Positions 22,401-25,400 of a stretch of DNA of 64,000 nucleotides are shown one piece after another. The stretch is taken from the NCBI RefSeq assembly GCF_057098645.1, contig NZ_CM169472.1, one strand, 5' to 3'. Position numbers: made by a program. How positions within the stretch are numbered: the first letter of the stretch is position 1; every line of letters begins with the position of its first letter.

Positions 22401-25400
22401 AACATCACGTAATTGTGCAAGATGAATTGTTCTGAGACTGGATTCACCAATATTTTGTGCGTAATAATCACTTTTACGCATCGCACGTTTAAGGCTTTGA
22501 CTTGAAATTCTTACTCGTCTTTTCCCGCCGAAAATAGCGTCTTTCTGCATGTTCATATCGTCGCGGTTCAGACATGAAGGGCTGTGAGAGATCAGAACAT
22601 GAATATTGATAAAGTTAGACATAGAAAGGTTTCCTTACGCATTTTTGTTTGTGGTCAATACAAAATCTTCCAGAAGTTGCTGGCGTTCGCGCTTTCCCCA
22701 CCAGGTCAACATCCTGGCCATTAATGGCCAGTCAAGTACGGGTTCGGCGTGAGTAAGTAATCGACGTAACTGGACCATATCGGCTGTTCTGTCAGCCCGA
22801 ATTAATTGAAAGATACGGCGCTCGTTAATTCTTCCACTATTGGCTAAAGCTCTTCCCAACGAGATACCTGTTGTTTGCTCCGGTTTTTTGTCCTGATGTC
22901 GGATGACATTCTTTCCTGCGCTCAGGCAAAACACCATGCGCAAAAGAGCCTGCTGGTGACGTGGGTTCTCCCAACCAAAAGGTTGCACCAGCCTATAAAA
23001 CGCAGGGATATCGCGTAATTCATCAGGTTCTGAAACACGTCTAATTTGCGCACATGCTCCATTATCCAGTTGTTGCCAGGCTCGATATAAAGCCATTGCA
23101 TCAATTTCATCAGCCATTTGATGGCCCTCCTTGCGGTTTTAACTCCCGTAAATGTTTGTATAGCGTGGCGCGGGCAAGCGCTAATGTGCTTATTAATTTA
23201 GGATGATGTGCATAGGGAGCTACAGATTGATTAAATAGCATTTCACACAATTGATGAAGTTTGTCTCGTAAATCAGCTATGACCTCATCAGCCTGGGAAA
23301 AATTAACATTCGCCAGAACATCGGGAATTAATAATTCACTCTGTCGATAGAAATGCCTTTCTGCAGTCTCATGAACAGAGACTCCGGCCCCTTTGAAGTC
23401 TTTATTTTTAAACCCTTCTGCAAAGGTATATAACGCCTTGCGTAAGGCTGTTTTATATCCCAAACCAACAGTCACTATTTCGTTTATCACATTGCCGTAT
23501 TGTTGCCACCCCTGATTAAACATCAGCACATCATGACGCCGTTCAAGAATAGATGCTTGATTATTACGATATCCCCCCATAATCAATTCAAGAGGACTTT
23601 GCGGCGCAATATTTCTGAATTGATTCACAACCGCCGCCACGCGATTTCCATTTTCATTTTGAATAATCTTATCTACCACAACTCGGCTGATTTGTGTCCA
23701 TGATGGTGCGGAGGTGGTGAAAGCAAGAAATTTTTCCTCAACCTCCCCTTTCTTGACTGTTACCAGACAAGGGGAATGCGGATGGGGCCATAGCCCATTA
23801 ACTGTAAAGGTAAATTTTTCCTTAAGAAAACCGGTATAACGCAAATTGCTTTCCTGTCCACAGCAAGAACATTTACCAATCCCAATGGGATCGCATAATT
23901 CAATATGCGCTGGTTGCCAGAATAAGCCACGGACAAAGCCAATTGACGAAGCTGGCACAGATTCATTGGGCTTGACAGGCTTAATCCAGGTAGGTTGGTT
24001 TTCCGTATGTGATTCATTGGGAAATTGTTTTTGAAGACGAGGTATTGTGAGGACATTGAGTAACACCGTCGAGCGAAGATCGATCCCACGTACGAAGGTG
24101 GTTATAGGTGTTCCTCCACGTAAACCGCTTTTAAAGCCACCACCAAAACCAGGTGCCTGATTCGCTTGGTTGAATAACGCAATCGCAGTGCATCCACCAC
24201 ATAATGCTTCACCCTGACCCGGTTGATTGACAAATGCACAATTCGTCGCGCCGCTTACCCCAGCCAACAGTTTTTCCATTGGAGTCACATCATTTGCTTT
24301 GACACCTTTGGTCTGCATAAAGGGATGTTCTGCGTGATTAAGGTAGAACATATCTATCCACGGCGCGATGAGTTGTTGAAACTCATCTTCAGTGAGCGGA
24401 TTCATTATGCGATGTCGAAATTCAACGTCATCTTTTGCCGGGGCGATAATTTGCCCAATGCAAACCAGCAGTGCTAAAGCGGCCAGTTCCATATCGTCAC
24501 GGGGCAAACTTAATCGCCACTGATCTCTACTGCAGTATAGCGATTGCAGATTTATGATTTGGACTTTCCCCCCGTTTCGCGGGCGTACAGGGATCCAGTT
24601 ATCAATAAGCAAATTCATTTGTTCTCCTTCATATGCTCCGACATTTCTCCTGCATTTCTATACGTCGGCACACTTCCGTTATCGGTAAAAACAAAGAAAA
24701 AATACGGCGTAATTAATTCAATAATCACATTCACTGCAAAAATATATTCATTGGTTTACTACAATTAACCTATACATATATTAAGATGTATTGAATTGTT
24801 TAAAGAAGATAATGCATGCATTTCAAATCTGCAAGTTATTCGTTTTATTATCAAAGAAACTTTTAGTTATAATAATTACCATAAATTTTATTACATGAAA
24901 TATTCATACTGTGAATATAAAATCTCATACCGGGAAATTAAAAGAAGATGTACATTGTGCACCTTCCCTACTTAAGTAGGGATAAACCGTTATTGGTCTT
25001 GTTATCGTCATTGATACCAATCATTCCCGAAGTTATTTGGGATTTGCAGGGATGACTCTGGTCATCCCTTCATCCCCTGTATAGGTAATAACAATACTGT
25101 TACCCTGCCAGAACCATCCATCCTGATTCTGTTTCCCTTCCAGCCAAAGTAACCCATCTTCATCTACTACTTCAGAAAAACTACGTTTCCAGGTGAAGGG
25201 TACATTGACGCGATTAAGTGCAAGCGCCTCATACTGCTGTTCATGACTTAGGTCCTCGTAGACCTGGCCATCGAGCAGTTGTTTACCTGAAGACGTTTGT
25301 ACATAAGGCAATAATGGCAGGCTCATTTCCCCATCCCTCGTTACCGCAAGAATGGTTTCATCGTTATCCTGCAAACTATATTCTTCAGCCCACTGCAGAA

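Follow-up and report, generated by a model that had tools for sequence, protein, structure and literature searches.

A degenerate mini-CRISPR between cas3 and casA in an Escherichia coli type I-E locus as a probable CreR-type regulator of the cas operon

Judged from its sequence, the 414-bp cas3-casA intergenic region of an E. coli type I-E locus includes a degenerate mini-CRISPR of two repeats, on the strand opposite to the cas genes. The tract is neither a passive nor a decaying spacer, as it contains a conserved mini-CRISPR, the predicted target of that mini-CRISPR and a promoter-like element; this structure was overlooked in the original prediction, which treated the region as AT-rich, non-coding DNA subject to H-NS silencing. 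We consider it likely (probability roughly 0.7) that the module is a CreR-type regulatory mini-array that would place the cas operon under negative feedback by Cascade, acting beneath the layer of H-NS silencing. Put simply, the mini-array RNA probably lets Cascade shut its own promoter. The idea of such a mini-array is already known from a published prediction and from tests in Salmonella and Citrobacter. The stretch of DNA analysed here (the window; 64,000 nt of contig NZ_CM169472.1, assembly GCF_057098645.1) contributes one further allele and independent comparative support, and no new principle.

The tract (24619 to 25032) is bounded, as originally proposed, by the start of casA (ORF 23110 to 24618, minus strand) and the stop codon of cas3 (25033 to 25035, minus strand). 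Its AT-richness is also evident, with a G+C content of 0.30 versus 0.50 for the window; the standard deviation about the window mean is 0.06, and the tract core (24711 to 24910), at 0.21, ranks second in AT-richness among 200-nt segments of the 64 kb. Contrary to what had been stated, two non-coding tracts in the window are longer, those between ygcE and queE (43852 to 44975; 1,124 bp) and between iap and cas2 (approximately 18529 to 19048; 520 bp). Both of these contain CRISPR arrays and leaders (the canonical arrays of the window lie at 44427 to 44637 and 18610 to 18943), and once such tracts are set aside the cas3-casA region is indeed the longest. The claim that it lacks ORFs holds in the sense that there is no credible gene, but mechanical ORFs of 20 to 74 aa are present, of which three small ones gave no match in Pfam. 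In Rfam, no family reached the gathering threshold for the tract, and the matches obtained at E up to 10 were at chance level; a terminator scan of the tract found none.

Compared with E. coli K-12 (DH1), the tract has the same length and the same flanking genes, and 405 of its 414 bases are identical. It is the same locus, nine bases different, as the K-12 region with the divergent promoters Pcas and anti-Pcas of Pul et al. (2010) and Westra et al. (2010). According to reviews, in K-12 the casA promoter Pcas (also Pcas8e) is repressed by H-NS, StpA and CRP and activated by LeuO, and anti-Pcas is repressed by H-NS (PMC10011333; PMC7074321). Silencing of the K-12 equivalent by H-NS and its activation by LeuO, as invoked in the original prediction, are established biology, and because the locus is the same and 405/414 identical, regulation by H-NS, StpA, CRP and LeuO is expected to carry over. 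From homology and composition, H-NS silencing is the default expectation for the tract. Its base composition fits the preference of H-NS for AT-rich DNA, and the 10-bp high-affinity H-NS motif TCGATAAATT has one match in the tract at 2 or fewer mismatches, without enrichment.

The frameshift reported in cas3 exists. The gene (25033 to 27698, minus strand) has 2,666 nt versus 2,667 nt in K-12, and a 1-nt deletion near 25696 leaves ORFs at 25341 to 27698 and 25033 to 25644. This single deletion was the sole basis for calling the system partly decayed. It occurs in none of the 1,140 complete E. coli genomes that carry this cas3 segment, with the best match (99.6%) differing by that gap, and either a private mutation or an error in sequencing may account for it. 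Being private to this sequence, it is weak evidence of decay, and we do not retain that part of the claim. The first gene of the controlled operon, casA (cse1/cas8e), is an intact ORF of 502 aa with homologues that carry PF09481; casB, casC, casD, casE and cas1 are open over their full length as well, and cas2 lies within an open ORF.

The first repeat-like element, psiR1 (24961 to 24989, plus strand; ACCTT-CCCTAC-TTAA-GTAGGG-ATAAACCG), ends in an exact, intact copy of the 8-nt 5'-handle sequence. By chance, GGGATAAACCG would be expected 0.05 times in the window. While only 19 of its 29 bases are identical to the array repeat GAGTTCCCCGCGCCAGCGGGGATAAACCG, psiR1 differs from it by compensatory changes that keep the hairpin, so that the dot-bracket fold is the same as that of the canonical repeat (z = -3.5). 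Among 13 sequences, 92% of the cells of this hairpin are paired and double changes occur in 3 of the 7 pairs. The second element, psiR2 (25021 to 25049, plus strand; TCATT-CCCGAA-GTTA-TTTGGG-ATTTGCAG), straddles the cas3 stop codon; it has diverged strongly from the repeat (14/29 identical), cas3 codons constrain part of it, and it too folds with the canonical dot-bracket (z = -3.2). It is found in all related mini-arrays with 93% of cells paired, a count that is biased because the copies were picked by best fit to the structure. In both repeat hairpins the CCC/GGG pairs at the base of the stem hardly vary, and the other pairs change in a compensatory manner. Between the hairpins lies the spacer-like psiS (24990 to 25020, plus strand; TTATTGGTCTTGTTATCGTCATTGATACCAA), with a length of 31 nt compared to the usual 32, giving a stem-to-stem spacing of 60 nt in the mini-array versus 61 in the arrays.

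Directly 3' of psiR2, within the last cas3 codons (GMTRVIP), a strong hairpin (25048 to 25069, plus strand; aGGGATGAC-tctg-GTCATCCCt) is present in the minimum-energy fold of 24925 to 25085 (z = -4.4), and both repeat hairpins also persist in the fold of the whole precursor. In 13 of 14 lineages, a hairpin of 8 to 13 bp with another sequence is found at this position; its arms read V-R-T in place of T-R-V in Citrobacter and Salmonella. The hairpin may mark the 3' end of the mini-array transcript or stabilise that transcript. Overall, the arrangement is that of CreR: two repeat-like elements flank a spacer-like one next to the cas operon and outside any array, with a handle upstream and a hairpin downstream for predicted cleavage by Cas6. 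Classification as a canonical CRISPR array was rejected, as there are only two copies, at 19/29 and 14/29 identity, on the strand opposite to both arrays. A possible second mini-array at 43897 to 43974 was likewise discarded, having no PAM-flanked target anywhere in the window.

The 5' part of psiS matches a site within the same tract, 218 bp upstream of casA (24836 to 24852, plus strand; TTATTcGTtTTaTTATC), that would correspond to protospacer positions 1 to 17 and adjoins a canonical type I-E PAM, AAG (24833 to 24835, plus strand). The match covers 14 of 15 pairing positions, with mismatches at positions 6, 9 and 12. None of 100,000 shuffles of psiS scored 14/15, and the site at 24836 is the only AAG-flanked one in the 64 kb that scores 12 or more. 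Across 13 lineages, the mismatches fall at position 6 and often at position 12, as pairing by Cascade predicts. Read on the casA strand, the PAM becomes CTT, which with the next G supplies the TTG of a -35-like hexamer; CTT followed by G is present in 11 of the 13 lineages. As in CreR systems, the PAM-proximal part of psiS is partly complementary to a PAM-flanked site, which a consensus -35/-10 reading and Shmakov et al. place at the cas promoter.

The candidate casA promoter (24806 to 24834, minus strand) comprises a -35 element TTGCAG (24834 to 24829), a 17-nt spacer and a -10 element TATCTT (24811 to 24806), with 7 of 12 consensus matches and the -35 register off by one base. An automated promoter scan of the casA (minus) strand of the tract found nothing; the position of the candidate next to the PAM is conserved across lineages. 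In all, the scan returned four promoter-like sites in the tract versus 2.9 expected, all on the plus strand. One of these, at 24895 to 24923 (ATGAAA, 17 nt, TAAAAT; 9/12 in the consensus scan), is a candidate mini-array promoter with a predicted start at approximately 24930, some 30 nt before psiR1, and its match is not above chance for a tract this rich in AT. It may be the anti-Pcas promoter. The anti-Pcas RNA of K-12 is 150 to 200 nt long (PMC7074321), and the predicted mini-array transcript of approximately 140 to 190 nt agrees with it in direction, in overlap with the 3' end of cas3 and in length.

Of the nine differences from K-12, three fall inside the module: 25001 (psiS position 12, which is non-pairing), 25017 (psiS position 28) and 24852 (target position 17, where the window gains a match). 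Two others, 24807 and 24808, change the -10-like hexamer of the candidate casA promoter, which is TATTGT in K-12, and the substitution at 24897 falls within the -35-like hexamer of the putative promoter of the mini-array. The window and K-12 both retain an intact handle, two intact hairpins, the PAM and seed positions 1 to 11. Within E. coli, tract identity is mostly 95% to 99%, and a search in distant mode recovered the K-12-type tract only, in 1,134 genomes; the O157:H7-type I-E locus has a 97-bp gap without a mini-array.

Beyond E. coli, the module is tied to the length of the gap. It is present in 13 of 13 related loci whose cas3-casA gap is 317 bp or longer and in 1 of the 34 whose gap does not exceed 240 bp, and it occurs at the same place in Salmonella, Citrobacter, Xenorhabdus, Pantoea, Edaphovirga, Izhakiella, Marinomonas, Methylococcaceae and metagenomic relatives. 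When no PAM was required, the best psiS match was still AAG-flanked, on the same strand and 177 to 250 bp upstream of casA for 13 of 16 locus entries. Thirteen different seeds each match their own target, i.e., psiS and target change together in 13 lineages, and the mean psiS-target score is 12.3/15 for cognate pairs versus 8.1 for non-cognate ones. Positions 1 to 5 and 7 to 11 match in 12 to 13 of the 13 lineages and position 6 in one, counts that are inflated because targets were chosen by maximising matches and for which the non-cognate control is a partial remedy. A Salmonella locus (L048) that is the closest in CasA has a homologous element with a weak psiR1 hairpin and a best target of 7/15; we looked for a convincing target for this mini-array and found none. 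The L048 element appears degraded, showing that decay of such elements does occur.

In at least 11 of the mini-array lineages examined, a conserved ORF of 35 to 44 aa with a good ribosome-binding site starts 55 to 71 nt past the PAM, and in these relatives it encodes one hydrophobic segment. Three more database homologues of this small ORF were looked up, and every one of them is located between cas3 and casA and accompanied by a cognate mini-array. The family is unnamed; in a library of 1.8 billion proteins, its profile matches approximately 30 cluster representatives. A tract of the type seen in one of the related loci (L049), considered as a second allele within E. coli, was absent from 5,426 complete genomes.

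Taken together, we propose two layers of control. By homology to K-12, H-NS would silence both Pcas and anti-Pcas, and LeuO would activate Pcas. Beneath this, a divergent transcript comprising psiR1, psiS and psiR2 would be read into the 3' end of cas3. Cas6e (CasE) would cut at the base of both hairpins, yielding a crRNA-like RNA of approximately 60 nt with the 5' handle AUAAACCG, which Cascade would then load. The complex would bind the AAG-flanked site at 24836 via approximately 17 nt of pairing, long enough for binding but presumably too short for cleavage by Cas3, and, because the -35-like element of the casA promoter shares bases with the PAM, bound Cascade would block RNA polymerase and so repress its own operon. 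The 150- to 200-nt anti-Pcas RNA of K-12 and the functional tests of the Salmonella and C. rodentium relatives lend indirect support to transcription, maturation and Cascade-dependent repression of this kind. Such a loop should relax once crRNAs or anti-CRISPRs titrate Cascade. Since H-NS also silences anti-Pcas in the wild type, the loop would matter only after relief from H-NS.

A close precedent is the regulatory mini-array and target predicted for the E. coli I-E locus by Shmakov et al. (2023; Fig. 4B; NAR 51:8150; preprint PMC10120712). Like the window module, their element has two repeat-like sequences between cas3 and cas8e (casA) and is transcribed opposite to cas3, and their text places its AAG-flanked target immediately upstream of Pcas, overlapping an H-NS site. 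As far as that text allows, going by its description and not base for base, it is the same element; the text names neither anti-Pcas nor, for I-E loci, a toxin ORF or membrane protein. Our literature search found no paper testing the E. coli element. For Salmonella enterica ATCC 51960, Liu et al. (2023) showed that the I-E CreR, combined with Cascade from E. coli MG1655, represses the Salmonella casA promoter, and that repression is relieved by overexpression of a crRNA or by AcrIE8. This CreR resembles the window module in architecture, location, AAG PAM and partial match to the casA promoter. Its psiS is different, starting with TAG and having 15 consecutive matches approximately 140 bp upstream of casA, compared to 14/15 interrupted matches at 218 bp in E. 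coli, where the element is a prediction and the Salmonella one is tested. In C. rodentium, the cas3-casA circuit requires Cascade but not Cas3 (Basta, Campbell et al., 2025). That CreTA shares with the window a crRNA-like RNA on the opposite strand of the cas3-casA gap and a PAM-flanked partial target at the promoter, but its gap measures 495 bp, its PAM is ATG and a translated toxin ORF of 96 bp follows the repressed promoter, whereas no toxin ORF is detectable in E. coli by profile search. The founding degenerate two-repeat mini-CRISPR, in which Cascade represses a promoter via partial pairing, is the I-B CreTA of Haloarcula hispanica (Li et al., 2021); as described by Shmakov et al. and Basta et al., it differs from the window in subtype, in its location between cas6 and cas8 and in its toxin, an RNA that sequesters a rare tRNA.

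Could the tract be an inert relic, i.e., an H-NS-coated AT-rich promoter with functionless repeat-like sequences left over from an old array or a lost CreTA? Both promoters are H-NS-silenced in K-12, so the RNA may rarely be made, and the K-12 type I-E system is widely regarded as inactive in the laboratory (PMC10011333). In addition, the closest relatives can live with IS3 insertions in casA and cas6e, the copy at Salmonella L048 appears degraded, and the diversity within the species is too low to reveal selection. We nevertheless consider this unlikely, given that a relic would not be expected to keep the handle, hairpins, PAM and seed intact in both the window and K-12, to retain a PAM-flanked 14/15 match that no shuffle equals, or to co-vary with its target across 13 lineages. 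Another reading, in which the anti-Pcas transcript acts independently of Cascade as a simple antisense RNA to the 3' end of cas3 (termination, stability or translation), appears very improbable to us. Such a role was proposed by the discoverers of anti-Pcas, as relayed in PMC7074321 and PMC10011333, and it accords with the strong conserved hairpin inside the last cas3 codons and with an overlap of the last 40 to 100 nt or so of cas3 (25033 onwards, depending on the predicted 3' end). This overlap is short, and an antisense role explains neither the repeat-like hairpins with their exact handle nor the covarying, PAM-flanked match 125 nt upstream; it is also compatible with CreR-type regulation and not exclusive of it.

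The least probable alternative, in our view, is a CreTA-type addiction module, in which a CreA RNA and Cascade would repress a small toxin gene between target and casA, so that a cell in which Cascade was lost or inhibited would die or stop growing. The C. rodentium gap has exactly such a translated toxin ORF, and the small ORF behind the PAM in mini-array lineages, together with its three further homologues next to cognate mini-arrays, fits the same scheme; the E. coli leader, at 214 nt, does contain a 39-codon GTG ORF. This ORF has neither a ribosome-binding site nor a hydrophobic run of membrane-spanning length, no ORF of the tract combines the two, and the small-protein profile matches nothing in the leaders of the window, K-12 or Salmonella L048 (best E > 0.5), while it matches the L049 leader at E = 1e-10, a value obtained against 18 translated frames only. 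On the same profile search we rejected a decayed toxin gene in the E. coli leader. Moreover, IS3-disrupted casA and cas6e occur in genomes whose tract is 100% identical, and these relatives are viable; a BW25113 strain without cas and hns is in routine use. Judged by toxins of the small-ORF family, the window therefore lacks the toxin gene of CreTA/CrePA modules, and the absence of a detectable small toxin gene in E. coli argues for a stand-alone regulator and against an addiction module.

Combining these observations, we tentatively suggest, at somewhat less than even odds, that the anti-Pcas RNA is the CreR precursor and that the E. coli module represents a widespread type I-E module that has ended up without its toxin. 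The anti-Pcas RNA would then end at the conserved hairpin in the last cas3 codons, and the ancestral module would have had a gene for a membrane protein of 35 to 44 aa behind the Cascade-repressed promoter. If this is true, E. coli shows a CreTA addiction module turning into a pure autoregulator. E. coli K-12 is the reference organism for type I-E systems, and the cause of the silence of its system is a long-standing question. A CreR-type feedback loop, if confirmed, would account for part of the behaviour of hns and LeuO strains, would give a role to the anti-Pcas RNA, the function of which has been unexplained since 2010, and would affect how reporter and overexpression experiments at the casA promoter are read.

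The window comes from E. coli, and the area around the intergenic tract between cas3 and casA is 100% identical in strain UTME-3 and approximately 98% identical in K-12 derivatives. The ORF boundaries of casA (23110..24618, minus strand) and of the end of cas3 (25033, minus strand) agree with the predicted tract of 414 bp (24619-25032). AT-richness was also borne out: G+C is 0.30 versus 0.50 window-wide, and the core of the tract ranks second among the 200-nt stretches of the 64 kb. It is not the longest intergenic tract, being exceeded by the ygcE-queE gap (43852-44975, 1124 bp) and the iap-cas2 gap (approximately 520 bp), each of which houses a CRISPR array with its leader. 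The statement that the tract has no ORF holds in part: small mechanical ORFs are present, although the three tested gave no protein-family match. A mini-ORF of 9 codons (MSEHMKENK, 24615-24644, minus strand) is preceded by AGGAG, and its stop shares ATGA with the start of casA; K-12 has an identical copy, other genera do not conserve it, and it could reflect translational coupling into casA or chance.

The cas3 frameshift of the original prediction is present, with a single base absent near 25696 (GCC to GC, at approximately codon 668). Among 1140 complete E. coli genomes that have this part of cas3, not one shares the deletion, which is therefore a private mutation or a sequencing error. One private base loss is a weak argument for a partly decayed system: full-length reading frames are open for the Cascade genes and for cas1, and an open ORF contains cas2. 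Between cas3 and cysH, a stretch on the minus strand (27778-27934) is a full-length match to the Rfam sok antitoxin RNA (RF01794; 98 bits, gathering threshold 59), and the matching O157:H7 genome has a Hok/Gef toxin gene annotated in this gap, which together indicate a hok/sok-type locus directly upstream of cas3.

The view of the tract as a featureless, decaying spacer is wrong; the sequence argues strongly that it holds a well-conserved CreR-type (regulatory crRNA-like) mini-CRISPR together with its target. In the window's arrays, the minus-strand repeat sequence is GAGTTCCCCGCGCCAGCGGGGATAAACCG. Positions 24961-24989 of the plus strand, which is antisense to the cas genes, read ACCTTCCCTACTTAAGTAGGGATAAACCG, with the 8-nt handle exact and the stem CCCTAC/GTAGGG in place of the CCCCGC/GCGGGG of the arrays, so that two pairs are altered on both sides. 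The 11-mer GGGATAAACCG has an expected count of 0.05 in the window; its sole other occurrences are in the arrays and a single degenerate short array. A second, identically shaped hairpin (25021-25049, CCCGAA/TTTGGG) spans the cas3 stop codon sixty nt beyond the first, an array-like spacing. The canonical repeat and the first and second elements have an identical dot-bracket structure (z = -3.6, -3.5 and -3.2, respectively), and both hairpins are kept when the whole 161-nt precursor is folded (z = -4.4). Between them lies a spacer-like sequence of 31 nt starting TTATTGGTCTTGTTATC.

The window contains a second two-repeat mini-array (43897-43974, minus strand), 450 bp from the CRISPR array at 44427-44637. 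It begins with a degenerate repeat, ATATTCCTTGTAAAAACAGGGATAAACCG, whose stem is compensated and whose handle is exact; 20 nt of spacer, AACTAGTTAAAGTTTTTATT, separate this from a near-canonical repeat in which the handle is degraded. A PAM-flanked target for it was not found within the window; it may correspond to the short CRISPR2.2 array of K-12 or be another regulatory guide.

The target of the cas3-casA spacer-like sequence lies in the same tract, where the plus strand reads AAG|TTATTcGTtTTaTTATC from 24833; AAG is the canonical type I-E PAM. Positions 1-17 contain 14 matches, with mismatches at 6, 9 and 12; in Cascade, positions 6 and 12 are unpaired. Shuffling the spacer-like sequence 100,000 times never reached the observed score at any AAG in the tract, and the site at 24833 is the sole AAG-flanked site in the 64 kb with at least 12/15 matches.

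We gathered type I-E loci via CasA homologues and found the same arrangement in the same place in Salmonella, Citrobacter amalonaticus, three Xenorhabdus species, two Pantoea, Edaphovirga, Izhakiella, Marinomonas, Methylococcaceae and metagenomic enterobacteria. For 13 of 16 locus entries, the top match to the local spacer-like sequence, in a search that imposed no PAM, has an adjacent AAG and lies on the same strand, 177-250 bp upstream of casA. Cognate spacer-target pairs score 12.3/15 on average and non-cognate pairs 8.1; the thirteen lineages have thirteen distinct seeds, every one matching its own target. By position, matches occur in 12-13 lineages at 1-5 and 7-11, in 1 at position 6 and in 5 at position 12, and matching past position 17 is at background level. 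Pairing is kept in 92-93% of cells for both hairpins (slid controls, 17-73%), a figure that is biased for the second hairpin because its copies were chosen by fit to structure; compensatory changes occur at 3/7 pairs in both. Of the loci in which cas3 and casA lie at least 317 bp apart, 13/13 have the module; it is absent from the 29 loci where the two genes overlap or abut. Within E. coli it is confined to the K-12-type locus (1134/5426 complete genomes); the O157:H7-type I-E locus has a 97-bp gap and no mini-array.

The tract of K-12 strain DH1 is also 414 bp, with nine differing positions; given that 405/414 bases are identical, regulatory knowledge from K-12 should carry over. As originally predicted, the K-12 equivalent is silenced by H-NS and activated by LeuO: the casA promoter (Pcas) and a divergent promoter, anti-Pcas, are both H-NS-silenced, and Pcas is also repressed by StpA and CRP and activated by LeuO (PMC10011333, PMC7074321). 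The same H-NS/LeuO regulation should apply to this tract; a scan for the high-affinity H-NS motif was uninformative as to binding. The candidate casA promoter on the minus strand is TTGCAG, 17 nt, TATCTT (24834..24806). In 11/13 lineages CTT, the PAM complement, is followed by G, and thus supplies the TTG of a -35-like hexamer on the casA strand; most of these have a TAnnnT element 16-18 nt downstream. Compared with K-12, the -10-like hexamer of this candidate is altered (TATCTT versus TATTGT, 24807-24808), as is the -35-like hexamer of the candidate mini-array promoter (ATGAAA versus ATAAAA, 24897), and a substitution at 24852, target position 17, gives the window an additional match to the spacer-like sequence.

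The mini-array RNA could start near 24930, from a plus-strand promoter-like site (24895-24923) that by itself scores no better than chance. Its 3' end may be a strong hairpin (25048-25069, plus strand; arms GGGATGAC/GTCATCCC) immediately past the second repeat-like element and within the terminal codons of cas3 (GMTRVIP). A hairpin of other sequence occupies this place in 13/14 lineages, and in Citrobacter and Salmonella the arms exchange T-R-V for V-R-T; as this changes C-terminal residues of Cas3, selection on structure rather than protein is suggested. The predicted transcript, from approximately 24880-24930 to approximately 25070 (140-190 nt), fits the reported anti-Pcas RNA of K-12, which is 150-200 nt, overlaps cas3 and is of unknown function (PMC7074321, PMC10011333). 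By analogy with tested relatives, Cas6e would process this RNA and Cascade would be loaded with it, bind the target without cleavage and, sitting on the -35 region, occlude the promoter.

The finding is already known, given the published K-12 silencing and the prediction of Shmakov et al. 2023 (PMC10120712): the silencing from experiment, the mini-array from prediction. That study describes a mini-array in the E. coli I-E locus, transcribed opposite to cas3, whose AAG-flanked target overlaps an H-NS site immediately upstream of Pcas; the name anti-Pcas is not used there. The H-NS reading is correct as textbook K-12 biology and expected here by homology. Our literature search found no experiment on the E. 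coli mini-array itself. With E. coli Cascade, the Salmonella I-E CreR represses the casA promoter approximately 8.6-fold, which is lifted by crRNA overexpression or AcrIE8 (Liu et al. 2023). In C. rodentium, the cas3-casA gap encodes a translated 96-bp toxin that is repressed by Cascade, guided by an opposite-strand crRNA-like RNA (Basta, Campbell et al. 2025).

At least 11 of the examined mini-array lineages share a conserved ORF, 35-44 aa long and preceded by a good ribosome-binding site, that starts 55-71 nt after the PAM and ends just ahead of casA. Loci with members of this family are L051, L006, L004, L005, L036, L009, L014, L039, L017, L022 and L054-L056. Its consensus, M...L..INS.TP.GIA..AL.VA.LAL, has one hydrophobic segment, and the family is unnamed, with no match in Pfam, NCBIfam or PADLOC. 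In a protein library of 1.8 billion entries, approximately 30 representatives match the family profile (E ≤ 0.001); three further homologues that we looked up all lie between cas3 and casA with a cognate mini-array. By analogy, the ORF is probably a Cascade-repressed small toxin of the C. rodentium kind. The profile also finds a copy broken by an in-frame stop in the closest relative (L049), and nothing in the leaders of E. coli (window 24619-24832) or Salmonella (L048). Of the two closest genomes, strain UTME-3 (L003), with an intergenic region 100% identical to the window, has an IS3-family insertion in casA and a second in cas6e; O145 strain RM9872 (L053), with a 100% identical cysH segment, has one in casA flanked by a truncated cas5e. 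These genes are intact in the window, and loss of Cascade is evidently tolerated in this lineage. Because of the absent profile match and the disrupted casA and cas6e in close genomes, the best interpretation of the E. coli element is a toxin-free regulator that acts on its own.
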